IMG/VR virus record: IMGVR_UViG_3300020042_007840
Span: 1 to 52,467 of that record
Source of the DNA: a virus
Lineage: Duplodnaviria > Caudoviricetes
Strand: one strand, 5' to 3'
Length of the DNA: 52,467 nt
Positions 1 to 48,160 of the stretch are shown here, in pieces. Positions within the stretch are counted from its first letter, which is position 1. Each line of letters begins with the position of its first letter. The notes below the pieces were generated by a model. That model was not told where the DNA came from, made no database searches, and saw only the letters and a program-made list of their open reading frames with translations. A program made the position numbers and the translations under genes.

Positions 1-110
1 ATGTCCGACAATTTTGATCTTAACGACTACAACGTAAGTGATGCAATCACCGATTGGATGGGCGACAATTTTGCAGATAAAGTCCAAGATTTAGATTTAG
101 TTGTGCGGGC
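1..110. repeat. Exact 110-bp inverted duplicate of 988-1097
   Basis: 1-110 is the reverse complement of 988-1097 (3' end of ORF 981-1421); the junction falls in the 27-bp repeat. Confidence 0.95.
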
Positions 111-131
111 CCGCCCACCCCCGCCTCCACC
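105..131. repeat. 27-bp GC-rich dispersed repeat, copy 1
   Basis: GCGGGCCCGCCCACCCCCGCCTCCACC, one mismatch to copies 2-4. Confidence 0.95.
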
Positions 132-234
132 ATTAGGGAAGATATATGGGAAATGGGCGCGTGTCCAATGAAAAAAACCAATGGGATATTTTAAGCTGAT
201 AGTTTTTATATTAGCGGCTTAATATATCCTTATG

Positions 235-308
235 AATCAACCACTTACTGATTATCTATATATAAAATGCCTGATTGATTTTGTTGTATTTACGCTAAGC
301 TGTTGATT
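235..308. promoter_or_regulatory. Two oppositely oriented IHF consensus sites
   Basis: AATCAAccacTTA at 235-247 (+) and AATCAAcagcTTA at 296-308 (-) both match WATCAANNNNTTR, in an AT-rich tract. Confidence 0.6.
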
Positions 309-366
309 TATATAGCTTATTTGATTATATGCAATCTTGTACGATCTGGACAGGCTGCACAGGATA

Positions 367-393
367 GCGGGCCCGCCCACCCCCGCCACCACC
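367..393. repeat. 27-bp GC-rich dispersed repeat, copy 2
   Basis: GCGGGCCCGCCCACCCCCGCCACCACC. Confidence 0.95.
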
Positions 394-402
394 TGAGGGA
401 AT

Positions 403-431
403 AAAAAAAAGGGCCCGCATATGCGGGCCCT
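403..431 (-). terminator. Rho-independent terminator
   Basis: Minus strand AGGGCCCGCATATGCGGGCCC then a T-run, downstream of ORF 454-918. Confidence 0.85.
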
Positions 432-453
432 GAGAAAATGTCCGGCTGCCGGA

Positions 454-918
454 TCAGTCACACACAATCTGATACTTTGGCACCTCTTGCACTTCGATCC
501 CGGTCTGGACTCTGCGGCACGTTGGACTGTCGGACCGGACATATGCGCAGATGTTCACAATCACATCATCCAGTTCAAAGCTGTAGTCCCGGTTGACTGA
601 GTGGTGTGTCCAGTCTTTGGTTGAGACCTTGTCGGTCTTAGATGTGAAGAACTCTAACAGGTCCACCAGTTGTTGATCCTTGAAGCTCTCCAGACCATTA
701 AGATTCACTTCAATGTAGGGCTTATAAAAACTGGTCCGGATGTACAGGTTGTGCACTTCCAAGTTCAGGCCCTTGAATGCCTCAGAGTAGTTGACACGGA
801 TTTTCATCCGTTGGCCTTCCAAGGCCTTGGCCCGGGTAATCAGTTCGTGGCCTTCTTTGCGGGCCTTGCTGGTTGACTCATTGATCGCTAGGATCAGGGG
901 GTTGGTCTTGCGTTGCAT
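454..918 (-). CDS. Hypothetical early protein, 154 aa
   Basis: ORF with conserved leader AGAAAGGATAGCGAA-ATG, a leader hairpin at 939-962 and TGtTATACT extended -10. Confidence 0.8.
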   Translation of the reverse strand: MQRKTNPLILAINESTSKARKEGHELITRAKALEGQRMKIRVNYSEAFKGLNLEVHNLYIRTSFYKPYIEVNLNGLESFKDQQLVDLLEFFTSKTDKVSTKDWTHHSVNRDYSFELDDVIVNICAYVRSDSPTCRRVQTGIEVQEVPKYQIVCD

Positions 919-980
919 TTCGCTATCCTTTCTAGGTTGTACTGAATCGGCTGATTCAGTACGTAGAGTATAACACTAAA

Positions 981-1421
981 TTAACGTGCCCGCACAACTA
1001 AATCTAAATCTTGGACTTTATCTGCAAAATTGTCGCCCATCCAATCGGTGATTGCATCACTTACGTTGTAGTCGTTAAGATCAAAATTGTCGGACATCCA
1101 AGAACTGATCGAATCATCAAGACTAACATTGGCATCAAACCAGTCGCTGATCTTTTGATCCATATCGCCCTCGCGGAGCAAATGCTCATTGATCCGGGAA
1201 TCGATCAACTCAATAATTGCCAACTTCTCAGGGCTCGGGCCCCGGGCCTGATCAAAAGCATTTGCAGCAGTATTGACCACCACCATGAGCGCGGTCATAG
1301 CTGCTGCCTTGTCGCTGCTGAGTGCGAACAAAACTTCGGTTGCATAGTTCATGGCTGCATCAATGTCACACCCTCTGGATGCGAAAACATTATTGGCGTG
1401 TTTACGTAATGGGTTGCTCAT
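981..1421 (-). CDS. Hypothetical early protein with acidic I-x-D/S-W-x-x-x-N repeats
   Basis: ORF with leader AGAGAGGATAGAGAA-ATG; three C-terminal repeats. Confidence 0.8.
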   Translation of the reverse strand: MSNPLRKHANNVFASRGCDIDAAMNYATEVLFALSSDKAAAMTALMVVVNTAANAFDQARGPSPEKLAIIELIDSRINEHLLREGDMDQKISDWFDANVSLDDSISSWMSDNFDLNDYNVSDAITDWMGDNFADKVQDLDLVVRAR

Positions 1422-1474
1422 TTCTCTATCCTCTCTGGTTGAACCCCGGGCACCGCGCCTAAGGCATGGGGGTG

Positions 1475-1537
1475 ATTCTACGTTAGTGGTTTACATTGTC
1501 TAATTGTATTTCGCTATCGGTTCAGGGCAGATAATAG
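1475..1537 (-). promoter_or_regulatory. Repeated early sigma70-like promoter P1 with upstream operator
   Basis: TAGACA-16-TAGAAT preceded by CTAT-N16-ATAG-cgaaatacaat. Confidence 0.8.
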
Positions 1538-1539
1538 CT

Positions 1540-1566
1540 GCGGGCCCGCCCACCCCCGCCACCACC
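1540..1566. repeat. 27-bp GC-rich dispersed repeat, copy 3
   Basis: Identical to copy 2. Confidence 0.95.
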
Positions 1567-1584
1567 GATCAGGGAAAAAATAAG

Positions 1585-1613
1585 AAATAAACCCCCGCGC
1601 ATGCGCGGGGGCC
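1585..1613 (-). terminator. Rho-independent terminator
   Basis: Minus strand CCCCCGCGCATGCGCGGGGG followed by TTTATTT. Confidence 0.8.
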
Positions 1614-1625
1614 AAGGGCAAAAAA

Positions 1626-1868
1626 TCAGCCCGCCTGAAGCTGGACCCCGCCCCGGGGGCCAAGGCAAAGCACAAAGTCCGGGTACTCTTCCACGGCTTG
1701 CTTGCTGCTGGCGCGGTGAAGCGAAGCCTCGATATCTTGGTCAAAGCGGCCAAGCTCTTCGGCGACTTCGCGGTAATGGTCCACGGCTGCTGCCTTGGTG
1801 CGAAACCTTAAAACGTCATCCAAGGTATCGGAGCCAAGGCGAAGAAACCAAAACGATTTTGTGATCAT
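1626..1868 (-). CDS. Hypothetical early protein, 80 aa (MITKSFWF...)
   Basis: Start reassigned to ATG 1868 behind the conserved leader AGAAAGGATAGCGTT. Confidence 0.75.
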   Translation of the reverse strand: MITKSFWFLRLGSDTLDDVLRFRTKAAAVDHYREVAEELGRFDQDIEASLHRASSKQAVEEYPDFVLCLGPRGGVQLQAG

Positions 1869-1897
1869 AACGCTATCCTTTCTGTTGTTGCGCCCCC

Positions 1898-1961
1898 ATT
1901 GTGGCAAAGCCCGCGCCCCTTGTCTAATTGTATTTCACTATTAAAGCGAGAAAATCGATAG
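1898..1961 (-). promoter_or_regulatory. Repeated early promoter P2 with upstream operator
   Basis: TAGACA-17-CACAAT preceded by CTAT-N16-ATAG-tgaaatacaat. Confidence 0.75.
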
Positions 1962-1963
1962 CT

Positions 1964-1990
1964 GCGGGCCCGCCCACCCCCGCCACCACC
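1964..1990. repeat. 27-bp GC-rich dispersed repeat, copy 4
   Basis: Identical to copies 2 and 3; similarity to copy 1 extends through ATTAGGGAA. Confidence 0.95.
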
Positions 1991-2008
1991 ATTAGGGAAA
2001 ATATAACC

Positions 2009-2036
2009 AAAAACCGCGCCCCAAGGGGCGCGGGGC
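2009..2036 (-). terminator. Rho-independent terminator
   Basis: Minus strand CCGCGCCCC-TT-GGGGCGCGG followed by TTTTT. Confidence 0.75.
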
Positions 2037-2168
2037 AAGGCGAAAGCATTAAGAACCAAGGCCCGCGCCCCATGGGCCACGGGCCTTGCACCACGTTTCA
2101 GGCGGCAAGATGCAGGGACCAAGGGCCGGGTTTAACCCTTGCGGAATTAACCCGGCGTGGGCACCAGT

Positions 2169-2217
2169 TGAGAATCATTCTCATTGGGAAATCGCCCGCA
2201 ATTGAGAATGATTCTCA
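2169..2217. promoter_or_regulatory. Two Fur-box-like 7-1-7 palindromes
   Basis: TGAGAAT-C-ATTCTCA (2169-2183) and TGAGAAT-G-ATTCTCA (2203-2217). Confidence 0.65.
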
Positions 2218-2222
2218 GTTAG

Positions 2223-3173
2223 TTAAGCGGCGAGCAGCTCCAATGCCCTATTTTTGAGGGCTGCACCCGTACCGAACCAAGCCGACTCAAGGCGCGTATT
2301 GTCGCTGCGCCCCCTTTCATGGTCCACCATTTCGGTGACTGCGTTGAGCATTGCCCACCGGGTAGAACCCACCATCTCCGCACCCATGGCCGCCCCATCG
2401 AACAGGGCCCGAATGCGTTTGTATGCGCGACTGTCTGACACTTCGATACGCCCGTTATGGTATGGCTTGAGCAGCTCGGCCACGAATGAATCCGCCTCAG
2501 TAGCTGCCATGGGCACCCCTGCCAATTGGCGCGACTGCACCAAAAAGCGCTCCCAACTATTGGCAACAATGCCCAATTGAAGGCGGACCGCTTCAGGATC
2601 GAAGCGCTCCGAATGCAGCACCCGCACCGCCGAATCGTTGGCACCTAGTGCAGCAGTTATGGTGTTGTTACACACAACGCGAATCGTTGTGAATTTCGCT
2701 ACTGTCGCCATTGAAGTATCGTAGCTTGTGCCGAGCAGTAAATAAGGCTTGACTGTGTCGCCCTGAACCACGTCCGCGCCTTCGCCCACCGATGCCAAGG
2801 CCCAAACCCTGCGGCCATAACTGAGCGCTCCGGCCGTTTCCATTTGAAACCCGCCGAGCCCTACTAAACGCTCAAAAAACCCCATCACTTCCGAGGGCTG
2901 CACCACCCGGTAGCCGTCCGACACTACGGCCAAGGGTGCCCCGTTGTCGCTGCGGTGTAAAACCTTCCGGCCTTTGAACACTTCCGGTGCGGTGGCCGAA
3001 GGGTGCCGAAATAAAACCGGACTTTCGAGCACGGTGTAAGCCAAACCCGCTTCACGGGTCCATTCGTCAATTGCTGCCCCGGCAGTCAAAGACTGCCCCA
3101 AGCCATGCCAAGGGGTGCGGCCAACAAATGCAATTGCGGCCGTGCCTGTTGTGGTGTCGATCATGTGAGCCAT
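2223..3173 (-). CDS. DUF932 / TIGR03299 phage-plasmid family protein
   Basis: MAH..., PWHGLG, ETAGAL..GRRVWALA, IRVVCNNT and WAMLNAVTEMVDH motifs. Confidence 0.9.
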   Translation of the reverse strand: MAHMIDTTTGTAAIAFVGRTPWHGLGQSLTAGAAIDEWTREAGLAYTVLESPVLFRHPSATAPEVFKGRKVLHRSDNGAPLAVVSDGYRVVQPSEVMGFFERLVGLGGFQMETAGALSYGRRVWALASVGEGADVVQGDTVKPYLLLGTSYDTSMATVAKFTTIRVVCNNTITAALGANDSAVRVLHSERFDPEAVRLQLGIVANSWERFLVQSRQLAGVPMAATEADSFVAELLKPYHNGRIEVSDSRAYKRIRALFDGAAMGAEMVGSTRWAMLNAVTEMVDHERGRSDNTRLESAWFGTGAALKNRALELLAA

Positions 3174-3227
3174 TTCGCTATCCTCTCTGAGTTAAACCCG
3201 GCAGTCGCCCGACTGCTGGTGTTATGA

Positions 3228-3290
3228 ATTCTATGCCCTTGTGCGGCATTGTCTAATTGTATTTCACTATCGTGGTTTCAATCCCCATAG
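3228..3290 (-). promoter_or_regulatory. Repeated early promoter P3 with upstream operator
   Basis: TAGACA-16-TAGAAT with CTAT-N16-ATAG; leader hairpin at about 3198-3219. Confidence 0.8.
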
Positions 3291-3345
3291 TTATCAAAAA
3301 ACCAATGTAGAAGAAGAAATATTCCCACCGCCACGAATACCAATA

Positions 3346-4044
3346 TCATGCCGCCCCCTCTCGGCCAATATCCCCGGCCACATGATGGCGCAGCATCGAG
3401 CCCGAAGGCAGCGAGCGAGCAAAAGACACAAGGGCGGCCGCATCATTAGGCGAGCCCACTTTTTTTGTGCCATGCCAAGCGATGGCGGCAGGCCCCCCGG
3501 CAGCATAGCACCCGCCCTTACCGGTGCCCACTTTTTTGGCCCCGCTCCCATGGGCCACAAAAACGACAACATCGGTGCGGTCGGGGCGTGCGCAAATGGG
3601 CGAACCATTGCCACATTGTGAACACGTGAAATTCTCGGCCAGCTCGGCAGGGCAGCGATGAAACCGCACACCTTCAACGACTCGGGGCCAAGTTTCGGCC
3701 GTGTCAGCAGCGGCAGCCAATACGGCAGGGCGGCCAATTTTTACGGCGGCGATAGCCTCAGCCACATTATCCGCGCTCGCATTAATGACAGTTTGCCCGG
3801 GTTTCGCAATTGGCAGCATAGCGGCCGCAAAGTGCGAATAAGTCCAAGCAAGCCCACGGCGTGGCACCGCATCGAGCAAGGCATTTAAATAATCGAAGTC
3901 CACCGCAGCCGAACCGGTCTCACTTTTTGGGTGTAGTCCGCACGTTTTGGGGCAGGTGCCGTAGGTCTCATGGGTGCCGCTCCGATAAGTGGCAGCAATT
4001 GGGCCCAGTTTACGATTCGATGAGATTGCAATAGTGCGCAACAT
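3346..4044 (-). CDS. Cys-rich phage protein (Gp88/DUF7227-like, possibly Fe-S or Zn binding)
   Basis: SNxKxG, TCPxxC, WTYSH, CPAE..TCxxC...C, GCYA and RHHVAGD motifs; conserved leader. Confidence 0.65.
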   Translation of the reverse strand: MLRTIAISSNRKLGPIAATYRSGTHETYGTCPKTCGLHPKSETGSAAVDFDYLNALLDAVPRRGLAWTYSHFAAAMLPIAKPGQTVINASADNVAEAIAAVKIGRPAVLAAAADTAETWPRVVEGVRFHRCPAELAENFTCSQCGNGSPICARPDRTDVVVFVAHGSGAKKVGTGKGGCYAAGGPAAIAWHGTKKVGSPNDAAALVSFARSLPSGSMLRHHVAGDIGREGAA

Positions 4045-4072
4045 AACTCTATCCTCTCTGTTGTTGAAGCCG

Positions 4073-4285
4073 TTATTTTATGGACATCATGGGGACCATG
4101 TCGAATTGATTTTTTATATAGTCGAGCCGTTCCGATAGTTTAGCCTTATTAATCGGTTCAACAATAAAAAGCCCGTCAAATTTAAACCTGCCCCATTCGA
4201 TGGCATCGCGTTTGCGTTTGAAGATGTGCGAGGGGTCCCCATTGCGTGCATGGGCCCAATATACAAAGCGAGGGCGCAAACTCAT
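4073..4285 (-). CDS. Hypothetical protein, 70 aa
   Basis: ATG at 4285 overlaps the upstream stop (ATGA coupling). Confidence 0.65.
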   Translation of the reverse strand: MSLRPRFVYWAHARNGDPSHIFKRKRDAIEWGRFKFDGLFIVEPINKAKLSERLDYIKNQFDMVPMMSIK

Positions 4286-4518
4286 TTTTTTGCCCCCACT
4301 AAAACGCGAAGCTCCGAAGCGCAAACAAGGCAAGCATTCGCAAAAATAGGGCTCTCAATTTCGCAAGGTTCGCAATGATGCCAGCCATCACAGGGCAATT
4401 CTCCGCGCCCCACGGCATCGTGAACGGCAAACTGGCCGCTGCGCTCATAAATGTCATATGCTTTGGCAAATATTTGTTCCGCATCGGGAACCAAAACGGG
4501 CTGTTGAGGTGTTGTCAT
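4282..4518 (-). CDS. Small zinc-finger-like protein
   Basis: CEPC...CLVC pairs; conserved leader AGAAAGGATAGAGTT-ATG. Confidence 0.75.
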   Translation of the reverse strand: MTTPQQPVLVPDAEQIFAKAYDIYERSGQFAVHDAVGRGELPCDGWHHCEPCEIESPIFANACLVCASELRVLVGAKK

Positions 4519-4547
4519 AACTCTATCCTTTCTGTTGTTGAGCCCAC

Positions 4548-4611
4548 ATGATAGGACAACGTGAGACCCTTGTCTAATTGTATTTCACTATCGGGTTCAC
4601 GTTTCCGATAG
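4548..4611 (-). promoter_or_regulatory. Repeated early promoter P4 with upstream operator
   Basis: TAGACA-17-TATCAT with CTAT-N16-ATAG; overlaps the 3' end of the nuclease gene. Confidence 0.8.
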
Positions 4612-5007
4612 TACGGCGGCAAGCTCCGGCCAGGGCATGCCACGCGAAGGCCAGTCCCGCAAGGCAGGCAGCCGAAGCCCCTGTTCGGCAAGGGCAATCG
4701 CATCGCGCCCATGGTACAAATAAACCCGGCCCGGTTTGGCAATCGTGCCCTTGTAACTGACAAGCACAAAGCAAGGCCGCCCCTGCGCAGCATGCCGCGC
4801 CATGAAAGCGATTTGATGGGGGCGAAGCGCCACCTTCAAGCCGCGCTCCACCACCTTGAGCTCAACGCACACCCAACGCGAGCCCACGCCGACAAGGCAA
4901 TCAGCGATGCCCAAATTGACGCGATTTTCGATCCGCTCGATGTCCGCCCCCGAAGCCTTCAAGCCATCGCGAACGCGAGCCGCAAAGGCTGCCTCAGGTT
5001 TCATCAT
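4597..5007 (-). CDS. VRR-NUC / Holliday junction resolvase-like PD-(D/E)XK nuclease
   Basis: KPE..F, RIEN....GIAD, VELK and LRPHQ motifs; likely start at MMKPE. Confidence 0.8.
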   Translation of the reverse strand: MMKPEAAFAARVRDGLKASGADIERIENRVNLGIADCLVGVGSRWVCVELKVVERGLKVALRPHQIAFMARHAAQGRPCFVLVSYKGTIAKPGRVYLYHGRDAIALAEQGLRLPALRDWPSRGMPWPELAAVLSET

Positions 5008-5668
5008 CGGGTCCCAAATCGTTATCCCGTTCAAAGATATCAGGGGGAGGTTCTGCCACGGGCATGACAAATATCGGGTCTTTTTCTCGTTCGACACTTT
5101 CGATCACTTTCCCGCTCTCGGCATCGATCAAAACAGTCGGGGGAGGCCCCCCGTAAAGTTGGCGCAGTTCATCGAGCTTTTTCTGCACTTCCTCTTTGCT
5201 CATGCTGTCGATCGTGCCATGGCGTATTTCTTTACGGTCAACATAGATGGTCCCCAGGGCCTGCCCTCGCCGATACTCGGCCTGCACAGCAGCCGCGAAA
5301 GCTCCCGCCTCCAGGGCTTTGTCGCGGATGAGTTGCAAGTCGCGCATGTGCCGCTCGTAGGAGGTGTTGTATTTCGAATTGAGCTCTGCCCGGTATGCCT
5401 GAATCGCGGCCACCACGTGGGGGTTGATCGAGGGGTTTGTGAGCTTCCAGGCCATCACCGAGGCCGAGCCCTCTTTGTACCCGGCACGCATGGCCGCCTC
5501 TTTCATGGTCACCCGGCCGTCCCCACTCACGAGCTCGGTCACAAACTTCCATTCCTTGGCGTTCAGGACCCTGCGCTGCTGCCGCAAAGGGACCACCTCT
5601 GTGCTCATGCGCTTGCGGGCCTTGTCCCCCATCACAGGGGGCACGTTCCAGACATCCTTGCGGGTCAT
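4994..5668 (-). CDS. terS: Terminase small subunit-like protein
   Basis: LxxKExKFV...EAAMRAGY..SA..AWKL..PHVxAAI HTH pattern; start at MTRKD coupled to the upstream stop. Confidence 0.7.
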   Translation of the reverse strand: MTRKDVWNVPPVMGDKARKRMSTEVVPLRQQRRVLNAKEWKFVTELVSGDGRVTMKEAAMRAGYKEGSASVMAWKLTNPSINPHVVAAIQAYRAELNSKYNTSYERHMRDLQLIRDKALEAGAFAAAVQAEYRRGQALGTIYVDRKEIRHGTIDSMSKEEVQKKLDELRQLYGGPPPTVLIDAESGKVIESVEREKDPIFVMPVAEPPPDIFERDNDLGPDDET

Positions 5669-5883
5669 CAGCGCGTTCTCCACAGCCGCCAGCCATCGGA
5701 CACCCTGCGCAAGGAAAACTGCCACTTGGGGGCGTGCATGCGCACAAAGCGAAGCGAAGCCACCCGAGCGCTCTCCGCCTGCTTCTTGTCCGTGAACAGA
5801 ATGCTGTCGCCGTCTTGCATGTCCCTAAACGGGTACTTGGTCCGATCTTCAGGCATAACGATTCCCGTATCAATCTGTATCAT
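5668..5883 (-). CDS. Small conserved phage protein (KYPFxxMxxGDS type)
   Basis: KYPFRDMQDGDSILF...RLWR; RBS GAGGG before ATG 5883. Confidence 0.75.
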   Translation of the reverse strand: MIQIDTGIVMPEDRTKYPFRDMQDGDSILFTDKKQAESARVASLRFVRMHAPKWQFSLRRVSDGWRLWRTR

Positions 5884-5909
5884 GATTACCCTCTGTAACT
5901 TATGCTCCA

Positions 5910-5939
5910 AGTGTAAAAGCCGGGTATCATTCGTGTCAA
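5910..5939 (-). promoter_or_regulatory. Leftward sigma70 promoter
   Basis: TTGACA-18-TACACT. Confidence 0.7.
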
Positions 5940-5989
5940 TGGGAAACGGGCAATCAGGGGCACCAATCCCAACTCACTACCAGATGCGT

Positions 5990-6206
5990 TTCCTATAGAG
6001 CCTAGGGAGGAAGAGGTGAAAAATAAATTCATCCACAAATTTTCGTAGGGACATCCCAGAGATTACGCCTCTTTTTTAAGCAGTAATGTAGTGTAATGCC
6101 TTGAAACCCGCATGTAGACTCACTTATTACGGCATTACGTCTATTACGCCTATCCCCACGAAATAAATTAAAAAAACACCTCTTCCTCCCCAGAGTCTAT
6201 AGGGAA
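5990..6206. other. Putative replication origin: nested inverted repeats with ATTAC/GTAAT iterons
   Basis: About 29-bp imperfect inverted repeat at 5990-6018 and 6177-6206, an inner inverted repeat, and six ATTAC/GTAAT pentamers; noncoding, between divergent promoters. Confidence 0.6.
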
Positions 6207-6315
6207 CCCAAAAATAGCATAACAAACCCCTGCTTACCCCCTAGTTTGGTTATATAGACCCTACAAGCATAGGGAAACTACCTATGTTTTTCTACACTTT
6301 TAGCACTTCAAAGTA

Positions 6316-6344
6316 TTGACACGTACGCCGTAGTGTCTTAAACT
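6316..6344 (+). promoter_or_regulatory. Rightward sigma70 promoter
   Basis: TTGACA-17-TAAACT. Confidence 0.8.
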
Positions 6345-6361
6345 AACCCCCGGAACAACAG

Positions 6362-6370
6362 TTATCCACA
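6362..6370 (+). promoter_or_regulatory. Perfect DnaA box
   Basis: TTATCCACA between the promoter and the RBS. Confidence 0.5.
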
Positions 6371-6387
6371 GAAAGGAGAGTTATTTT

Positions 6388-6633
6388 ATGCGTAAAGTCA
6401 CCAAACAAGAGGCCGCAGATCAGGCACGAATCGTGGCCGGGGCCAAGTACCTTGCCACTTGTTGCCAGGAGGATTTTGACCACCCGATCGATGCCTTGCT
6501 GTCCATGGTCCTGACCATTTCAGGCTTTGCCCATGCCATTGGCATGCCTCTGGCCGAGCTCCAAGAGGGGATTGCCCTGTCGTACGCAGACATGGAAAAT
6601 GCTTCTTCGGAGGTAAAAAAGCATGCACATTGA
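6388..6633 (+). CDS. Hypothetical protein
   Basis: RBS AAAGGAG; first gene of the rightward operon. Confidence 0.8.
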   Translation: MRKVTKQEAADQARIVAGAKYLATCCQEDFDHPIDALLSMVLTISGFAHAIGMPLAELQEGIALSYADMENASSEVKKHAH

Positions 6634-6835
6634 CAGCCCCTCGGTCCGTGATCCACGGCCCATCCCTTACGACACAGGCAAGGTGAAGATCGGCCTGTTG
6701 TACCAGCCCCCGATGCGGGACTACCTAACCCATGATGCAGAGCTCCTGCAAGAGGCCCTGTTGGCGCACCGCTACCCCTTGGCCGCCAAATCGATGTGGG
6801 ACCACATCCTGGACATTTTTTGGAGATCAAGATGA
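6623..6835 (+). CDS. Hypothetical protein (PYDTGKVKIG type)
   Basis: RBS GGAGG; overlapping operon structure. Confidence 0.75.
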   Translation: MHIDSPSVRDPRPIPYDTGKVKIGLLYQPPMRDYLTHDAELLQEALLAHRYPLAAKSMWDHILDIFWRSR

Positions 6836-7173
6836 CTATCAAACCTGTGACCCCTGGGGACCACCCTGACCTTGAGCATTTTGACTACGAATGTGATGAG
6901 CTTGGCGTGACCTTGTCGTGCTTCTTTGAATACGAGCCCTCGGAGGTAGGGGCCGTGGAGCGCGGTACGGGGTTGAAGTTGGAGCCTGACTATCCGGAGC
7001 AGTGGACCTTGGTCCACGTTTACCTCCCCTGTGGCCGCGAGATATCTGCCGTGATGCGTCAAGACATCCTGGACGAAATTCAGCAGCAGGGCGAGGACAT
7101 GTTTTCTTTAAAGCAGGCCGATGAGGCAGGCGAGGCAGCAATTGACCGTTGGATGGAGAGCAGAAATGACTGA
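6832..7173 (+). CDS. Hypothetical protein
   Basis: ATGA-coupled start at 6832; RBS GGAG. Confidence 0.75.
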   Translation: MTIKPVTPGDHPDLEHFDYECDELGVTLSCFFEYEPSEVGAVERGTGLKLEPDYPEQWTLVHVYLPCGREISAVMRQDILDEIQQQGEDMFSLKQADEAGEAAIDRWMESRND

Positions 7174-7492
7174 TCAAGAATTGATTGACCGCATGGCGAT
7201 GGCCGTGGCCCCGGCTTTGGTGGCTAATTTTTTGGCGAAAGGCCTGGATGAGGAAGACCCCTTTGATTGGATGGAAGGGCTGTCTATGGATGCTTATCGG
7301 ATGGCTTACTGCATGTACGAGGCCCGCGAGGCGGGGCCGGGTATGCGCAAGGGGTCTGATGAGCGCCAGGAGCTGATCCGGCTGCGCAGGCAGGTGGCGG
7401 AGTTCCGGGCCATTTACCGTGAAGCGGTGATGGATGGCATGGAGGCGGACCAATTGATGATTCGTGTAAGCAAAGTGGAGGACTTGAAATGA
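7166..7492 (+). CDS. Hypothetical protein
   Basis: Start MTDQE behind GGAG. Confidence 0.75.
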   Translation: MTDQELIDRMAMAVAPALVANFLAKGLDEEDPFDWMEGLSMDAYRMAYCMYEAREAGPGMRKGSDERQELIRLRRQVAEFRAIYREAVMDGMEADQLMIRVSKVEDLK

Positions 7493-7731
7493 TGGATGGT
7501 GCAGATGTGAAATTTTCGATTGAGCAAGATGGTTGCTTGGCCGAGGTGGTGATTCCTGTGGAGATCATGCGTGAGTTGGGTGACACCCGCCGGGAGTACA
7601 TGGGCAACACGGCCAACGATTTGTATGACCGGGTGCGGTTCATGGTCCGCCGGGTGGAGGCCGAGCGTGAGCAGGCCTTGACCCCTGAGCAGCGGGCCTT
7701 GCTGGATCAATTCCGGCCCAGGAGTCTTTAA
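7489..7731 (+). CDS. Hypothetical protein
   Basis: RBS GGAGG; ATGA coupling. Confidence 0.75.
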   Translation: MMDGADVKFSIEQDGCLAEVVIPVEIMRELGDTRREYMGNTANDLYDRVRFMVRRVEAEREQALTPEQRALLDQFRPRSL

Positions 7732-7913
7732 TGGATGAGGACACCAAGCTGCTGCTGAGTGCTTGGCGTGCCTTGGTAGTGGAAAACCAACGATTGAAGG
7801 AGTTACTTGATGAACAAGACAGAGAAGGACCCGGAGGACGAGGCGTTCGAGCAACTGGCCTTGAAGCAGGGGCAATGGCACCACATCAGCGGCTGGAGAA
7901 AGCGCCAGATTGA
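7731..7913 (+). CDS. Hypothetical protein, short coiled coil
   Basis: RBS AGGAG; TAATG coupling; tail overlaps the next gene. Confidence 0.55.
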   Translation: MDEDTKLLLSAWRALVVENQRLKELLDEQDREGPGGRGVRATGLEAGAMAPHQRLEKAPD

Positions 7914-8076
7914 GCAGGTTGCACACATGGATGTGCATAGCCACCCCGCCGAGTTTGCACACTTGACCCGCAACGACACGATCGAAGAGGTGGCAAAGGT
8001 TGTGGAAAAGGTGATGATAAAGCGGGGCGACACAGGGCACGATATTGCACGGCTTGTCAGGAGTATGAAGCGATGA
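7810..8076 (+). CDS. Hypothetical protein
   Basis: RBS AAGGAG; DPEDEAF and RNDTIEEVA motifs. Confidence 0.7.
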   Translation: MNKTEKDPEDEAFEQLALKQGQWHHISGWRKRQIEQVAHMDVHSHPAEFAHLTRNDTIEEVAKVVEKVMIKRGDTGHDIARLVRSMKR

Positions 8077-8399
8077 ATACCTTTATGGACGCACTCAAAG
8101 TCACTGGGACTACGCTACTGCTTGTCTTAATCGCCTGTCTTTTCATCCTGGTAGGGGTTGTATTTCTGCAAGCCACATTTGGCCCAAGCGAGGAACAACG
8201 GGCCAAGGATCGCATCCCCGCCGCTGTATCAAGCGCAGACGGATGCACGGTCTACAAGTTCTACGACAACTCAGCTTGGCACTACTTCACCAAGTGCGGC
8301 GGCACGGTGACCACGACAAAGAACTACACGGAGAGCTGCGGCAAGGGTTGTAGCCGCCCCCGCACAGAGGCTATGACAACGGAGGGGAATCAACCATGA
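8073..8399 (+). CDS. Membrane-anchored exported protein with cysteine pairs
   Basis: N-terminal TM helix; DGCTVYKFYD...YFTKC motif. Confidence 0.75.
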   Translation: MNTFMDALKVTGTTLLLVLIACLFILVGVVFLQATFGPSEEQRAKDRIPAAVSSADGCTVYKFYDNSAWHYFTKCGGTVTTTKNYTESCGKGCSRPRTEAMTTEGNQP

Positions 8400-8617
8400 A
8401 ACAAAATGAAATTATTGAAATGGCAAGACAGGCGGGGCTTCATGTGGCAACCGATGTGAACTGGATGCCAATCATTGGGCTTGAGTACGCAGAGAAGTTG
8501 ATTGCGCTTGCCCGTGCTAACGAACGTGAAGCGTGTGCCAGGGTTTGTGATGGATGGCCTGATTACGATGTGCAGGGCTTGGCTGAAGCCATCAGAGCCA
8601 GAGGAGAACAGGCATGA
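8396..8617 (+). CDS. Hypothetical protein (EREACA...AIRARG type)
   Basis: ORF with coupled start and stop. Confidence 0.75.
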   Translation: MKQNEIIEMARQAGLHVATDVNWMPIIGLEYAEKLIALARANEREACARVCDGWPDYDVQGLAEAIRARGEQA

Positions 8618-8748
8618 TTTACCACAGGGCTGGAATTTGGACGCAACAAGACATTAACGATTTTGAAGATTGCGTTGATATGCAACGGTTTGAAAAAAAA
8701 GGCAACAGAATTTTTGTTAAATATCCCCGCAAGGAGAAGAACACATGA
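8614..8748 (+). CDS. Small hypothetical protein, 44 aa, ending KEKNT
   Basis: Translated by hand; ATGA-coupled at both ends; RBS GAGGAG. Confidence 0.55.
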   Translation: MIYHRAGIWTQQDINDFEDCVDMQRFEKKGNRIFVKYPRKEKNT

Positions 8749-8882
8749 AAATTATTAAATATTTTATTGATTTATTGGACACGCTTAAAAAAATTGAGGC
8801 ACATCTCAATAAGCTCTCAAGCTGTGTGGGGAAACAACATAATGGATACGACCCAGCAGTGCGTATAAATCCATATAGCTGA
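8745..8882 (+). CDS. Small hypothetical protein, 45 aa
   Basis: Translated by hand; RBS AAGGAG. Confidence 0.55.
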   Translation: MKIIKYFIDLLDTLKKIEAHLNKLSSCVGKQHNGYDPAVRINPYS

Positions 8883-8896
8883 TCTAAGGAGAACAC

Positions 8897-9103
8897 ATGA
8901 AAGTACACCACCTTAAAGATTGGGATGCTACTGCCATGCTCACCCATGCAATAGAACGCATACAGCCAGAGCAGTCTTGCATTGTGTTGTTTTATGAAGA
9001 TGATGAACTAAAAACACTTTCCTCAAATGTAGACAACCAACACGCTGTATGGATGTATGAACTAGCAAAGCTAGTCGTACTGCATCAATGTGTTGACCAT
9101 TGA
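8897..9103 (+). CDS. Hypothetical protein
   Basis: RBS AAGGAG. Confidence 0.7.
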   Translation: MKVHHLKDWDATAMLTHAIERIQPEQSCIVLFYEDDELKTLSSNVDNQHAVWMYELAKLVVLHQCVDH

Positions 9104-9126
9104 AGCCAAACTCAAGGAGAAGAACG

Positions 9127-9378
9127 GTGGATAAACCAACAGCATGGTACGACCCAAGCAACGGCGTGGTCAGTACAGACAGAGACTGTCCTCTGTTCAC
9201 GCCGCTGGGTCAGGTGTGGCCGTTGTATCCAAAGGATGAGTGGGTTGATCTGACCGACACCCAAATTGAACAGGTCTACTTTGATGTGGTACAGGTACAC
9301 CGGGGCGCACCCATGCCTTGGGGCCAAGTGCAGTTTGGCAGAGCATTGCTGAAAAAATTTAAAGAGGTGAACACATGA
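9127..9378 (+). CDS. Hypothetical protein (EWVxLTDxxI type)
   Basis: GTG start behind AAGGAG. Confidence 0.7.
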   Translation: MDKPTAWYDPSNGVVSTDRDCPLFTPLGQVWPLYPKDEWVDLTDTQIEQVYFDVVQVHRGAPMPWGQVQFGRALLKKFKEVNT

Positions 9379-9545
9379 CACTACAAGAACATGTTCTTGC
9401 ACTGCCTGAAGCGGAGAGGGTGAAGTTTCTAAGAGCAATGGTGGCCGTGGCAGACGCAGGACGCACGGCGGGTGTGCCGCCAGAGCAGTGGGCAAAGGCA
9501 TATGCCGACACATACAAAGAAGTGGAGAAACAAAATGAACAGTGA
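9375..9545 (+). CDS. Small hypothetical protein, 56 aa
   Basis: Translated by hand; GAGGTG RBS; ATGA coupling. Confidence 0.6.
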   Translation: MTLQEHVLALPEAERVKFLRAMVAVADAGRTAGVPPEQWAKAYADTYKEVEKQNEQ

Positions 9546-9759
9546 TCAGAAATTTTGGCTTGGTATTTGGAGCATGGTATTGGCGTTCCTCGTAGCGCTG
9601 ATGGTGTGCATCACCATCAATGCTTATGGCAAGCGGGACAAATGGGAGAAGGCCGTGAGCAATGGCGCAGACCCAATGGTAACTACCTGTGCTTTGTATA
9701 GCGCGGACACGAGTGGCGATATTGCCATCTGCACAATCTTGGCACAGGGGCGCAAATGA
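9535..9759 (+). CDS. Small membrane protein
   Basis: Start MNSDQ behind GGAG; TM helix. Confidence 0.7.
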   Translation: MNSDQKFWLGIWSMVLAFLVALMVCITINAYGKRDKWEKAVSNGADPMVTTCALYSADTSGDIAICTILAQGRK

Positions 9760-9950
9760 GTTGGCTGCCCTGGAACGACAGCACCTGGGTCCTTGAAGCG
9801 CGGGACGGGGAGATTGTTGATGAGATACACAAATCCCTGTCCGGCTTCTACCACCTAGAAAGCACAAAGAAGAAGTACACCTCCTTGGAAGCGGCCCAAA
9901 GGGCGCGGACCAAGGAAGACGCAAAGAAAACCAAGGAGAAAAAGACGTGA
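9756..9950 (+). CDS. Hypothetical protein
   Basis: ATGA coupling. Confidence 0.65.
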   Translation: MSWLPWNDSTWVLEARDGEIVDEIHKSLSGFYHLESTKKKYTSLEAAQRARTKEDAKKTKEKKT

Positions 9951-9975
9951 TCAACACACAACCAGGAGAACACAA

Positions 9976-10149
9976 GTGCCCAGACCAAGATCAGAAATAA
10001 CCGACAGCGGGGTGGCTACCAGCATCCGAATGACAAAGTCCCAGCACACCGAGTACATACGCCTGGGTGGGTCTTCATGGCTGCGCAGGGTATTGGCCCT
10101 GAGCATCGAAGAACGTAGGAGGCAAGAACAGCAGGACAAACCATTATGA
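9976..10149 (+). CDS. Small putative ribbon-helix-helix-like DNA-binding protein, 57 aa
   Basis: Translated by hand: MPRPRSEIT...SIRMT...LGGSSWLRR; RBS AGGAG. Confidence 0.6.
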   Translation: MPRPRSEITDSGVATSIRMTKSQHTEYIRLGGSSWLRRVLALSIEERRRQEQQDKPL

Positions 10150-10260
10150 GCCGTGGGCCACGCAGAACGGTCCTTGTTTTGGGAAGACAAGGAACGGAGC
10201 TGGCAAGTTCATCTGCGTGCGCCCGGGCTCACCCATTTTATCAACCAAAGGAGTAATCAA

Positions 10261-10734
10261 ATGACAAAAAGTGACAAAATTCGCGAGTATTTTCGCAAAC
10301 ACCCCGACATGACTGCAACCCGGGTGGCTGCAAAGTTTCAGGCATCCAAGCCCATGACTTACAAGCTGCGCAAGGAAGTCCAGGAAGAGTGGAAGCCCCC
10401 TGAGATGCTGCCTATGCCTCCTCTCAGTTCCTGGTCAAAGATTTTGGAGGAAGTTGAGACCACTGACGTGGACGCAACCCTTGACGCTCGGGCCTTGGAC
10501 TACGGCGCATTCAAAGACGGCGCGGCCCTGATGCAGGGTATCAAGCGGCAGATGGCGGAGCATGCTCAAAAGCACGGCAAGACCTTTGCTGATGATCAGT
10601 GGGAAGCGCTGGAGATGATCGTGCACAAGATCGGCCGCATTGTGAACGGCAACCCCGACAAGGTGGATCACTGGACCGACATTGCTGGTTACGCCAAGTT
10701 GGTGGCTGACCGTCTGGAAGGGGTGGTGCGGTAA
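10261..10734 (+). CDS. N-terminal HTH-like domain plus DUF6378-like domain
   Basis: TLDAR..DYG.F...HKIGRIVNG.P...DHWxDIAGYAxL; RBS AAGGAG. Confidence 0.75.
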   Translation: MTKSDKIREYFRKHPDMTATRVAAKFQASKPMTYKLRKEVQEEWKPPEMLPMPPLSSWSKILEEVETTDVDATLDARALDYGAFKDGAALMQGIKRQMAEHAQKHGKTFADDQWEALEMIVHKIGRIVNGNPDKVDHWTDIAGYAKLVADRLEGVVR

Positions 10735-11390: not shown

Positions 11391-13256
11391 TCATTTGGCT
11401 TCTCCCCAGCTCGGTCCAATTTCCACATCACAGCGGCTGGGAACTTCCAGCCGCGCCGCTTCGGCCATTATCCTGGCTGCTTCAACCGCCTCTTCGCGGT
11501 TCTTGACACTCAACGCAAGCTCATCATGCACTTGCAAGATGGGCGTAAAGCCCGCCTTGGCAAGCGCCACCATGGCAGCTTTGGTCTGGTCAGCGGCAGA
11601 CCCCTGGATCAACCGGTTCAACCCCTTGTAGGTGCCCGCCCGCTTGATCCGTTGGCCGTACTCCATGACTGCTTGCTCCCGGGGCAAGGCCTTGTTCACG
11701 CCCCACTCCATCGGCTCCCACAGCGGAAAGCGGCACTTGCGGCCAAGCAAGGTACGTATTGCGCCCCCCGCTGCCGGGTGATCAATGCGCTTCATCACAG
11801 CAGTGACCGTGCCCTTGAGGAACGGCACGTTGGTGTGGAACCGATCGATCAGGTCAGACGCATCAGTAAGGCTCAAATCAAGCTGCGCAGCGAGCTTATT
11901 CTTGCCCATGCCATACATCAGGCCCAGGCCGATCGTCTTGGCCGCCTTGCGCTTAATTTCAGCCATGTCCGCCACCATCTGGTGAAAGTCCGTGTCCGGG
12001 TTGGTGTGGTACGCCTTGACCATGGTCTCGGCCCCGGGTAAACCCAGGAGGTTTGCATAGTGCACGAGCAAACGAGGCTCCTGTGAGCTGAAGTCGTTGG
12101 ATGCCCAAAGCTCCCCTTCCTCCGGCAGGAACAGCGATCGCACCATGGGGCCGATGATCTCGTGGCGGGCAGGGACCTGCTGCAAGTTGGGGTTCGCCAT
12201 GGACAGTCGCCCGGTGACCGTGCCGCCATCATCAGACCGCATCTGGTTGACGTGGGGATGAATGCGGCCCGTCTTGGAACTGAAGTCTAGGTAAGGTTGC
12301 AGAAAGGTTCCGTGGGTCTTGTTGGTTTCGCGAGCCTCCACGATCAACTTAGCCACAGGATGTTCACAGCTATCCAAAAATCCCTTGGTGAAGCTGGGCG
12401 CACCGTGCTCAGTCTTGCTATAGGGCAGACTCAACTTGTCAAAGGCGTGGGCAATGGACTGCGCTGCCCAGATATCCACAGAGTTTCCACAGATTCTTTT
12501 GAGCTCGGCGTAGATTTCTTTCTCGCGCTTTTGAAGCTGCTCAATCAAGCGTCCAGCCTTTTCCCGGTCAAAGCGGATGCCTCGGCGGGTCATTTCAAAG
12601 AGCACCGGGAACACCTCGGTCTCCAAGTCAAAGATCGACTCAACTTCATCCTGGCGCATCTTAATTTTGAAGTGCTGCCACAGCTTCAGGGTCAGCGCAG
12701 CATCTTGCTCGGCGTACTCCCCGACATACATCGCTGGGAGCTTCCAGAGCTCCTTTTTAGGATGGACACCGAAATCGGCGGCGGCCTGCTTGAGGCCCTG
12801 CTCGCTCTTGACTTCTTGAAGGTAGTCGAAACCAAGGGAGTTGAGGCTGAAGCTGAATCGGTTTTCATCAAGTAATGGGGCCGCGAGCATAGTGTCGAGT
12901 ACTCTACCTCGTACCACGAACCCGGAGGCCGTGAGCCATCCAAGATCGTAGGCGGCGTTATGCATGATTTTGTCGGCTGGGGTGGAAAGTACATCCCGTA
13001 TCCAACGTTCAACAAGCCGTTTGTCAAGGTTGCCACCACCGCCATGAGCCACAGGGTAATACCCAGACCAACCGTCAACGGCGACAGCGTAACCAACAAT
13101 AAACCCATCGTTGCGAGGCCAACCGGGACCAAAAGACTCCATGTGAGGGTCACAGGTTTCGAGGTCAATTGCAATCTCCTTAGCGTTGGATAAATTGGGA
13201 AAGGTATCTGGGGGCACCCACTCGGTGGGGGCGGGAAACATTGGGATGGTTCTCAT
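11391..13256 (-). CDS. polA: Family A DNA polymerase with 3'-5' exonuclease
   Basis: DLET exonuclease motif, TGRLS..PNLQQ, DFSSQEPR, KTIGLGLMYG and QVHDEL; likely start at MRTIPMF. Confidence 0.97.
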   Translation of the reverse strand: MRTIPMFPAPTEWVPPDTFPNLSNAKEIAIDLETCDPHMESFGPGWPRNDGFIVGYAVAVDGWSGYYPVAHGGGGNLDKRLVERWIRDVLSTPADKIMHNAAYDLGWLTASGFVVRGRVLDTMLAAPLLDENRFSFSLNSLGFDYLQEVKSEQGLKQAAADFGVHPKKELWKLPAMYVGEYAEQDAALTLKLWQHFKIKMRQDEVESIFDLETEVFPVLFEMTRRGIRFDREKAGRLIEQLQKREKEIYAELKRICGNSVDIWAAQSIAHAFDKLSLPYSKTEHGAPSFTKGFLDSCEHPVAKLIVEARETNKTHGTFLQPYLDFSSKTGRIHPHVNQMRSDDGGTVTGRLSMANPNLQQVPARHEIIGPMVRSLFLPEEGELWASNDFSSQEPRLLVHYANLLGLPGAETMVKAYHTNPDTDFHQMVADMAEIKRKAAKTIGLGLMYGMGKNKLAAQLDLSLTDASDLIDRFHTNVPFLKGTVTAVMKRIDHPAAGGAIRTLLGRKCRFPLWEPMEWGVNKALPREQAVMEYGQRIKRAGTYKGLNRLIQGSAADQTKAAMVALAKAGFTPILQVHDELALSVKNREEAVEAARIMAEAARLEVPSRCDVEIGPSWGEAK

Positions 13257-14755: not shown

Positions 14756-14990
14756 CAATGTCCCACATGTCGTTGGGCCACACGAGCACCGGGGTGTGCT
14801 CGCCCACATAAGCACCCTCGATGTTGTATTCGATGTACTCCCGCGCCATCTCAGAATCCATCCCGTCCCGGATCATCAAGATGTCGCGAATCTTCTCTGC
14901 GTCATACACCAGCACACCGACCACCTGGGGTCCCCTCCAAATCTCGGCAGGGCCAATGATCGCTTCATCAAAACCATCAATTCGTAGCAT
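14748..14990 (-). CDS. Conserved phage hypothetical protein
   Basis: DGFDEAIIG...EY.EYNI.GAYVGE.TP. Confidence 0.8.
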   Translation of the reverse strand: MLRIDGFDEAIIGPAEIWRGPQVVGVLVYDAEKIRDILMIRDGMDSEMAREYIEYNIEGAYVGEHTPVLVWPNDMWDIDA

Positions 14991-47248: not shown

Positions 47249-48160
47249 TCAAGAAGATCCGGGTGAACCGAAAATTCCCAAAGGATCCGAAACGCCGAAG
47301 CTGTAACGCTCACGGGCCTTGTAACGCACGTTACCGGTATCAAAGTCACCGTCCATGCCCGTAGCCATGGGGGTGCGAACGAAATGCTTCAAGCCGTTAG
47401 GAACGTCAGTGGTCAGGAACCATGCGTTCGTATCGGTCAGGTAGTGGTTAACGCAGTAACCCTCTGCAATCGAACCATTGTTCTTCAGAGCGTTGATGTC
47501 GTTGTCGGTTGTGCCAACACGCAACTCAGTCTCTAAGAGGCGAGTTGAAACGAACATCAGGCTAGGAGGAACAACCAGCTTTTTAGGCTTGGCTGCGATC
47601 AACAAACCGCGCTCATCCGTCCAGCCAGCGATCTGAATAACTGCGTTTTCCAACGAAGTTTCATTCAGGTCAGCGCCAGTGGTTGGGCGATTGCTGTTAG
47701 TGCCACCAGAGATCAGGGGGTGGGCAGTGTTACACAAGGAAACACCGTCACCGTAGGTCACCGTGGTGTTGAACGCTTGGTTCAGCACAAAAGCGGCCTT
47801 AACCTGCTTGGTATACGCCATTGCACGGGCCAAAGCTTTGGTGTAACGGGCAGACAAAGAGTCATAGAGGTTGTCCTCAATGGCTTCTTCAGTGACCGAG
47901 AAACCCATAGCGATGGTTTCGTGGTTGTAGCGGGCAGTCCAAGCCTCTTGACCATTGTCATAAGCAATAGCGGAGCCTTCATTCTTCACCGGAGCGGCAG
48001 AGAATCCAGACAGCTTGGTTTCTTCTTCAAAAGAACGCTCTGAGGTTTCGGTCTCATAGATCTCTTTATGCTCTTCCTGGTAGGTAGCATAAGACAAACC
48101 GAACAGGGCGTTCAAGCCGGGGAGCAACTCTTTGAGTAGCTGTGCGCGTGAAATTGCCAT
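47249..48160 (-). CDS. Major capsid protein (Mu gpT-like family)
   Basis: MAISRAQLLKELLPGLNALFG...DFDTGN.RYKARERYSFG; followed by a strong terminator. Confidence 0.9.
   Translation of the reverse strand: MAISRAQLLKELLPGLNALFGLSYATYQEEHKEIYETETSERSFEEETKLSGFSAAPVKNEGSAIAYDNGQEAWTARYNHETIAMGFSVTEEAIEDNLYDSLSARYTKALARAMAYTKQVKAAFVLNQAFNTTVTYGDGVSLCNTAHPLISGGTNSNRPTTGADLNETSLENAVIQIAGWTDERGLLIAAKPKKLVVPPSLMFVSTRLLETELRVGTTDNDINALKNNGSIAEGYCVNHYLTDTNAWFLTTDVPNGLKHFVRTPMATGMDGDFDTGNVRYKARERYSFGVSDPLGIFGSPGSS

Follow-up and report, generated by a model that had tools for sequence, protein, structure and literature searches.

We analyzed an entire IMG/VR virus contig of 52,467 bases (IMGVR_UViG_3300020042_007840; classed as linear, estimated completeness 84%), hereafter the window, and in particular positions 105–4611 of its minus strand, which make up a variable region of accessory genes in an uncultured freshwater tailed phage. 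Unrelated genes here are accompanied by recurring short sequences: a promoter block with its operator, an 18-nt leader, intrinsic terminators, and a 27-bp G-rich repeat (REP). On the evidence below, we consider it probable that the region is an assembly of standardized modules, that its cassettes are exchanged at the homology between modules without a site-specific recombinase, as in the promoter-early stem-loop (PeSL) elements of other phages, and that REP is a non-universal boundary element.

The modules would be a palindromic operator with a sigma-70-type promoter, the fixed leader, and an intrinsic terminator with REP. Because the same short sequences recur around unrelated genes, in one genome and in co-infecting relatives, they would also act as homology patches, at which cassettes of one or two genes could be gained, lost, duplicated, or replaced. 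The cassettes would move by homologous exchange between these short stretches, either during co-infection or inside a single genome. The breakpoints at the modules are observed, and the recombination mechanism is what we infer from them.

Standardized modules and strain breakpoints

None of the module counts is expected by chance. REP has four matches (at 105, 367, 1540, and 1964), three exact and one with a single mismatch, and 100 shuffles of the sequence gave none; the promoter block, GAAATACAATTAGACA, has four exact matches (1497, 1921, 3250, and 4571), a number reached in no shuffle (mean 0.27); and the leader matches its degenerate pattern exactly six times (ATG at 918, 1421, 1868, 3173, 4044, and 4518; shuffle mean 0.02). 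No further occurrence of the three was found in the rest of the window. An operator of the form CTAT-N16-ATAG directly adjoins all four promoter blocks, and an independent consensus scan calls all four promoters (-35 TAGACA, spacer of 16–17 nt) as well as strong hairpin and T-run terminators just upstream of three of the four REPs (2014–2033, 1590–1613, and 410–431). A sequence-only reading of this DNA had reported these counts and positions, and a unit running from operator, -35, and -10 through leader and cargo to terminator and REP; the motif matches and the consensus scan bear out both on the minus strand. The order terminator, REP, promoter is present at 2014–1898 and 1613–1475. REP directly precedes only the promoters at 1921 and 1497, and units 4571 and 3250 have neither a REP nor a called terminator upstream.

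The promoter-to-leader modules are of two paralogous types, which stand before unrelated genes: those of P4571 and P1921 agree at 82% over 82 nt, and those of P3250 and P1497 at 84% over a 31-nt leader stretch. Full 7-bp half-sites occur in one operator only (4588–4611, CTATCGG-N10-CCGATAG). The leader runs from a Shine-Dalgarno AGGA through TAG to the ATG. An 11-nt word, GATAGCGAAAT, is common to the leader (916–933) and the promoter-proximal operator half-site (1503–1520), which suggests a common origin of the two or a common binding factor. An Rfam search of positions 1–6600 (E up to 1) gave three weak matches, all far under the gathering scores. The array is replicated by the independent metagenome contigs L284 (99.9% over 754–2128) and L289 (92.8%, colinear over 1599–5050), and a leader 13-mer has 6–7 copies in each of five complete relatives (61–63 kb; reversed control 0). 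In G009, the sole one of these genomes placed against the large terminase gene (TerL), six of the seven copies lie 0.8–3.9 kb upstream of TerL. The modules would be regulatory parts kept by selection across the whole phage clade. The conservation itself is observed; to judge from it and from the consensus matches, they are probably working promoters, operators, ribosome sites, and terminators.

Whole-gene changes between near-identical strains end in the promoter block or the leader. Strain L247 is 96% identical to window positions 1496–2880 and has 248 extra bases, which comprise a P1921-type promoter–leader, a 58-codon open reading frame (ORF58), and an operator, and which are flanked by a perfect 21-nt direct repeat of the promoter block. 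Strain L271 matches the window at 97% identity through ORF154 and ORF146 and is unrelated upstream; the break falls exactly at the ORF146 leader, and a different small upstream ORF terminates in that leader's own TAG. The third event is a single Logan contig (run X18) without ORF78, which skips 4272–4511 (joint 4271 to 4512, with 144 matching bases on the shorter side) and ends at the leader and the next start codon. These breaks between close strains fall at conserved joints, as the sequence-only reading had predicted. Another Logan joint, 1517 to 1874 (one contig, side of 30, with an 8-letter loose end at 1941), was considered as a possible promoter-to-promoter recombinant and left unused as too weak.

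At greater distance we profiled the 22 non-identical loci among 25 in the subclade that has a REP after DUF932, the window excluded. Mean pairwise identity is 0.68 at the DUF932 end and 0.79 in REP, about 0.6 over a TTGCAA-type promoter and leader, and about 0.2 right past the ATG; it is back to 0.55–0.73 exactly from GTGCTATAATT, the hairpin, and the leader module ahead of ORF146. Between the window and L011-type relatives, nucleotide homology ends at the edge of REP 1964 that faces the promoter.

The cargo itself differs between relatives, as the sequence-only reading had supposed in contrast to the same genes kept in the same order. Gene order was compared in 49 TerL-anchored loci holding both DUF932 and TerL (31 others lacked one anchor), with ORFs called mechanically and clustered by blastp and with two spurious ORF families over REP or non-coding DNA removed. 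Gene content from DUF932 to TerL takes 38 distinct architectures in the 49 loci. ORF146 is present in 49/49 and is followed by a gene of family f9 or ORF154, while 0–4 small genes, mostly unrelated to each other, lie between DUF932 and ORF146; ORF80 precedes ORF146 in the window and follows it in L007. From this comparison, DUF7227, DUF932, and ORF146 are core genes with variable slots between them, so that the description of the whole as a cargo array holds for the small variable genes and not for these three. Strains that are otherwise nearly the same differ in the C-terminal part of ORF146 (981–1100), as Logan joints show (1004 to 1063 and 1109 to 1191) and as does a replaced segment in L271. 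The protein has repeated D-W-F/M motifs, and an ESM Atlas search with ORF146 returned unnamed viral clusters only, with scores below 0.8.

Exchange without an integrase, also proposed from the sequence, is consistent with what was found: no integrase, resolvase, RecT, or ERF was found in the window and four complete relatives (PF00589 and PF00239 each in 0 of these 5 records), and control genomes were positive. Recombination would therefore depend on host machinery or on an unrecognized phage function.

A rival account, which we think unlikely but worth serious attention, corresponds to the Hendrix-type mosaic model. The modules would be purely regulatory, turnover would be random illegitimate recombination, and selection would keep the junctions that fall between genes, the joints marking breakpoints and not causing them. 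This would accommodate the equal variability of relatives without REP, the presence of some mosaic joints within cargo genes (in one gene, L190 and L160 have only the 5' part in common), and the ORF78-less contig, which is not a clean between-repeat deletion. It is harder to square with the fall of identity across 22 loci only a few bases from the ATG, and with the L247 insert, whose perfect 21-nt promoter-block repeat and copied P1921-type promoter–leader are the signature of homology-driven exchange.

Several points weigh against exchange at the modules. Breakpoints at gene boundaries can also arise from selection on random illegitimate recombinants. The strain-level events are three in total, and none has a breakpoint inside REP, so that the proposal of recombination joints stands for promoter blocks and leaders and not for REP; relatives without REP are, moreover, equally variable in cargo. 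The run-level evidence consists of assembled Logan contigs, not reads; L284, L289, and some other contigs may share the window's own sample; and part of the figure of 38 architectures in 49 loci is ORF-calling noise. The window's promoter block, allowing two mismatches, was not found in the first 29 relatives collected, several of which carry a different, TTGCAA-type promoter. Finally, an early timing of the array units is suggested by the divergent promoter layout alone. An exact 16-mer search of IMG/VR for the promoter block gave at least 117 single unrelated matches, consistent with chance, and was dropped. Under exchange at module homology, the reading we prefer, promoter block and leader are the most important joints, and REP is a separate, clade-specific boundary element.

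Distribution and possible role of REP

REP is not required for cassette turnover; it is a boundary element and not a universal cassette border. The sequence-only reading had made it the general boundary of the cassettes, which does not hold: it adjoins two of the four promoters, the relative L205 has seven blocks (CTATCGG-N10-CCGAT, an A-rich stretch, CAATT(A/G)GAC) and 2 REPs, and REP-less relatives vary as much as the others. The related picture of a REP-bounded region is right in that three of the four REPs follow terminators, and wrong in that the last two enclose 235 nt of ORF-less, AT-rich DNA (132–366). This segment is 98% identical in L263 and 85% identical in L022, and may represent an origin, an empty cassette, or a gene for a small RNA. 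A related segment in L209 likewise lies between two REPs. In L007 the operator-promoter block is inverted and abuts REP; two such inverted blocks (L007 1015–1150) are each directed into a REP, with no usable -10.

The first relatives collected were 29 IMG/VR loci retrieved by the exact 21-nt REP core, so that REP conservation in this set is partly by construction; their backbone is 65%–73% identical to the window, and REP with its T-run 82%–95%. A second set, chosen to avoid this bias, was anchored on TerL and comprised the best 80 of at least 250 matching stretches, all at least 80% identical in amino acids. Among the 69 loci with at least 400 nt upstream of TerL, a REP lies at 200–350 nt in 53 (typically ~240 nt upstream), none was found in 15, and one has an internal copy only. 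The 53 loci with at least 2.8 kb upstream have two REPs in 27 cases, one in 12, none in 13, and three in one, and among 42 loci with at least 5 kb upstream of TerL the window alone has four. In a more distant group, three complete genomes have a single REP each, at arbitrary internal contig positions, and none was found in Phage DSL-LC04. Judging from these placements, the common sites of REP appear to be past the last terminator near TerL and, commonly in relatives, a second after DUF932, the window's lineage having apparently spread it to four places.

Upstream of TerL, the non-coding DNA is conserved in its own right (L022 1427–1600, L263 925–1090, and other TerL-anchored loci). It holds GGGGGAGGGCCAT, a GCCC..GTTT..GCC block, and CCCCCTTGTT with a spacer of ~17 nt and TATATT, and is kept without REP too: REP-lacking relatives retain the GGGGGAGGGCCAT word ~160–240 nt upstream of TerL and a promoter-like site (CTTGTT, ~17 nt spacer, TATATT). 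An inverted REP at the same place in these relatives, in a C-rich stretch, was considered and rejected, as its scores were below the 95th percentile of shuffles in 15/15 loci. A screen for gene families co-occurring with REP, in which phylogeny is a confounder, picked out nothing beyond subclade markers, a nuclease that had clustered differently, and a spurious ORF lying over REP itself.

REP was found in at least 120 metagenome contigs. A scan of bacterial genomes gave 10 matches. Nine, which we take as chance matches, fall in named genomes (seven of them actinomycetes), on large contigs of 12 kb to 6.9 Mb. The 2.6-kb contig L232, from a bacterial metagenome-assembled genome, has two REPs 1641 nt apart; it is probably a mis-binned phage fragment and no evidence of a host. 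REP is enriched in no bacterial genome scanned, and a host repeat was rejected. A full-text literature search (supplements excluded) found no phage paper on this repeat, the matches listed for REP 12-mers were unrelated, the passages on DSL-LC04 in the literature that were available mention no repeats, and the HTVC023P genomics paper has no mention of a promoter or a terminal repeat.

Conservation within REP follows its G-tracts. In an alignment of 103 non-redundant copies, each within four substitutions of the 21-nt core, all tract Gs and two Cs are invariant in 103/103, and variation is confined to single spacer positions (T/C, C/T, C/T/A, C/G, and C/A). The 5' part, which reads GAGGATGG in a second group of relatives, is the least conserved and the 3' 21-mer the invariant part. 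A T-rich run precedes 84 of 100 non-redundant copies, and the 66 nt upstream fold to -15 kcal/mol or below in 69/100, against 32/100 for the downstream control. Apart from the terminators, the four REP regions are predicted to fold as RNA no better than their shuffles do (z +0.1 to -1.8). The GCGGGCCCGC palindrome is broken by variation without compensation (position 17), which argues against a hairpin or a symmetric dimer site. The G4Hunter score of REP is 1.88–1.92, a single other place in the window scoring higher, and ViennaRNA predicts -28.9 kcal/mol with quadruplexes allowed and -11.6 kcal/mol otherwise. For the core, GGCGGGGGTGGGYGGG, a parallel quadruplex of three layers can be drawn, with a single bulge and loops of 1 nt, and every substitution in the 103 copies hits a loop, the bulge, or the CNCGC tail 3' of the core, so that the G-tracts are conserved while the loops vary.

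This pattern would fit a G-quadruplex or a protein-binding site, and our best guess is that REP is a quadruplex-forming or protein-bound insulator just past the terminators. The narrower proposal, a G-quadruplex-forming boundary element just past intrinsic terminators that is kept in an abundant lake-phage clade, we put forward only tentatively, from predicted folding. If true, a quadruplex could block read-through transcription and so insulate each cassette; it could also stall replication or attract recombination, one sequence then isolating the cassettes and making them exchangeable. Conservation of the G-tracts alone is in any case a concrete, falsifiable pointer to a phage boundary element that is bound by protein or adopts a non-B-DNA form, and REP a cheap marker with which to fish the clade's variable cargo genes from metagenomes. 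Literature searches for G-quadruplexes with bacteriophage genomes and terminators found only unrelated papers. A T7-like RNA polymerase as the reader of REP was considered; Pfam found none in ten further ORFs (including those of 1211, 813, and 471 aa), a search that was not exhaustive.

That REP is instead part of a packaging signal (pac/cos or a TerS-binding site), its extra copies being by-products of duplication, strikes us as improbable. The REP found 200–350 nt upstream of TerL in 53/69 TerL-anchored loci would suit it, as would the word GGGGGAGGGCC ("DOWN"), which follows REP in every first-set relative with a GGTGG-type repeat and in the TerL-anchored loci inspected. Yet the 15/69 loci without REP include L153 and L154, whose TerL is 91%–92% identical to that of L022 and whose TerS-like genes, at 74%–77% nucleotide identity to the window's (66%–75% in REP-bearing relatives), show no link of REP to TerS; internal copies stand at arbitrary positions in three complete genomes; and a packaging signal in four copies over 2 kb would be unusual. 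REP is thus not a single fixed site that co-varies with TerS.

Still less probable is a Chi-like role, in which REP would tame host RecBCD at the free DNA end left by packaging. The 5' part, GGTGGTGG or GGTGGAGG, resembles the Chi octamers of E. coli and H. influenzae, all copies point one way, toward TerL, and multiple copies would raise the odds of recognition; against this, conservation within REP is lowest in this 5' part, where a second group of relatives reads GAGGATGG, and no bacterial genome is enriched for REP. An integron-like platform with REP as the attachment site of a site-specific recombinase is largely refuted and hardly credible: short cassettes flanked by direct repeats and a REP copy number that differs among relatives recall one, but neither the window nor four complete relatives yielded a tyrosine or serine recombinase, the cassettes carry individual promoters, no hairpin or palindrome is conserved in REP, and the observed breakpoints are in promoter blocks and leaders.

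Genome setting and feature coordinates

Most genes of the window are on the minus strand (Table 1). A block of small genes on the plus strand (~6388–10734) diverges from a minus-strand block running from 5910 to 105, which probably starts as an operon at the promoter 5910–5939. The interval 5910–6344 is, from its layout, probably the control region of two early-looking operons. Between its divergent promoters lies a 34-nt inverted repeat (arms 5985–6018 and 6177–6210). The genes for the TerS-like protein and a VRR-NUC-like nuclease open the minus block, and the array region comes next. Of the eight genes that follow the TerS-like gene, five are matched by neither Pfam nor PHROGs; on the cargo genes, PADLOC returned no more than two marginal matches (E ~0.009). 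TerL is absent from the contig; past the last REP, the sequences of L022 (85% identical over 104–1472) and L263 (98%) reach TerL ~230 nt on, which places the array between the TerS-like gene and TerL.

The first 113 bases of the window (plus strand) are an inverted copy (99%) of 985–1097, the 3' end of ORF146, and the junction lies exactly at the edge of REP 105, which has 7–8 bases of microhomology with that end. Position 104 is bridged by none of the Logan pieces listed. Beyond it, loose ends at 104/105 in two runs, L022, L263, and L271 all enter the TerL-upstream sequence, and because of this we read 1–113 as probably an assembly foldback and not phage sequence, the alternative being a rare rearrangement.

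Table 1. Features of the window, in order of position
Feature	Position	Strand	Remarks
REP copy D, GGTGGAGG variant	105..131	-	terminal copy; in relatives ~240 nt upstream of TerL
AT-rich 235-nt segment, no ORF	132..366	-	between REPs 105 and 367
REP copy C	367..393	-	
Intrinsic terminator	410..431	-	9-bp stem, T8; ends ORF146–ORF154 unit
ORF154	454..918	-	no family match; in relatives alternates with unrelated family f9
Leader 1 (AGAAAGGATAGCGAAATG)	916..933	-	
TGnTATACT extended -10-like site and hairpin	934–980	-	before leader 1; same module precedes ORF146 in relatives
ORF146	981..1421	-	conserved core gene; acidic, pI 4.2
Leader 2	1419..1436	-	divergence point of strain L271 from window
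Promoter P1497 and operator (1514–1537)	1475..1537	-	block 1497–1512; TAGACA, 16 nt, TAGAAT; L247 insertion site
REP copy B	1540..1566	-	
Intrinsic terminator	1590..1613	-	of ORF80 cassette
ORF80	1626..1868	-	mobile cargo gene
Leader 3	1866..1883	-	
Promoter P1921 and operator (1938–1961)	1898..1961	-	TAGACA, 17 nt, CACAAT
REP copy A	1964..1990	-	
Structured non-coding stretch after DUF932	1991..2222	-	terminator 2014–2033, further hairpins, twin palindromes
DUF932 protein	2223..3173	-	core gene; leader 4 at 3171–3188
Promoter P3250 and operator (3267–3290)	3228..3290	-	TAGACA, 16 nt, TAGAAT
DUF7227 protein	3346..4044	-	core gene; leader 5 at 4042–4059
ORF70	4073..4285	-	start overlaps ORF78 stop (ATGA)
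ORF78	4282..4518	-	strain-variable cargo gene; leader 6 at 4516–4533
Promoter P4571 and operator (4588–4611)	4548..4611	-	TAGACA, 17 nt, TATCAT
VRR-NUC-like nuclease	4597–4995	-	upstream context of array
TerS-like protein	4994–5725	-	PHROG 51, E 7e-10; Pfam Terminase_2, E 0.006, below cut-off
Consensus promoter	5910–5939	-	TTGACA, 18 nt, TACACT
Consensus promoter	6316–6344	+	TTGACA, 17 nt, TAAACT; faces away from 5910–5939
Primase, helicase, family-A DNA polymerase	11391–16522	-	
Tape-measure-like protein	within window	-	
Major head protein	47249–48160	-	
Truncated portal	end of window (52,467)	-	

The twin palindromes after DUF932 are 15 bp each (TGAGAAT-N-ATTCTCA, at 2169–2183 and 2203–2217), occur in L005 too, and look like a separate operator pair. 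Elsewhere in the window, a 51-nt periodic repeat family (37749–38473) lies inside a 788-aa tail-fibre-like protein that ends in a Peptidase_S74 chaperone domain.

By TerL, the nearest named phages are DSL-LC04 (63% amino acid identity), described in the available passages as an uncultured lake phage genome (PMC10611076), and the Pelagibacter phages HTVC027P (54%) and HTVC023P (50%). Of the 24 public runs that hold window positions 1–6000, 23 are labelled freshwater or lake water and one is unlabelled. The summed depth of REP-containing contigs reaches ~1,400-fold in two lake runs (neighbouring bins mostly 30–90).

Relation to described systems

Integron cassettes and the array share short cassettes separated by a repeat, with variable content. 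The array has no IntI-type tyrosine recombinase and no attC-like folded site or hairpin, and its cassettes have promoters of their own, unlike the promoterless cassettes of integrons. The morons of lambdoid phages have individual signals and are expressed from the prophage. Like the cassettes here, they are self-contained promoter–gene–terminator units between conserved genes; here, in contrast, the signals are standardized and no integrase was found.

The leader has a functional counterpart in the start-associated sequences (SAS, and extended SAS) of Cluster K mycobacteriophages, as the passages on them describe (PMC3203893). Both are short asymmetric words containing a Shine-Dalgarno sequence, placed just before the ATG in a single orientation ahead of unrelated genes, both are limited to the non-structural part of the genome, and both often have an inverted repeat with variable spacer upstream. 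The leader differs from the Cluster K SAS in sequence, so that the likeness is functional only, and host and phage group differ as well; the inverted repeat here lies upstream of the promoter and not directly on the leader, and here strain comparisons make the leader a breakpoint.

The closest described system is the PeSL cassette, the mobile regulatory cassette of T4-like phages, and the analogy drawn from the sequence was apt. The unusually standardized parts of the array (operator-promoter, an 18-nt leader that supplies a stop, terminator with REP) make up a natural plug-and-play expression platform, and its defined junction types make accessory-gene swapping in lytic phages directly testable. 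In the passages that describe PeSLs (PMC2839356, PMC4122927), as here, a composite of terminator and strong sigma-70-like promoter is repeated in a variable region of small unassigned genes, insertions, deletions, and replacements between close phages cross over inside the elements, between the -10, the Shine-Dalgarno sequence, and the ATG, and no dedicated recombinase is in evidence. In the array, terminator is followed by promoter (the promoters at 4571 and 3250 lack the terminator half), near-identical copies are clustered (4 promoters, 6 leaders, and 4 REPs in 4.5 kb), and crossovers fall inside the element in three events (L247, L271, and the ORF78-less contig). Beyond the PeSL of those passages, the array has a palindromic operator and an 18-nt leader of much greater rigidity; between terminator and promoter it also has the 27-bp G-rich element, for which the PeSLs described have no equivalent. 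It does not belong to a T4-like myovirus: the TerL relatives are DSL-LC04 and HTVC023P-type pelagiphages, the genome is ~60 kb, and because of this difference in phage lineage the array would work like a PeSL but outside the described set. It thus extends the T4 idea of mobile regulatory cassettes to an unrelated, abundant, uncultured clade of freshwater phages.

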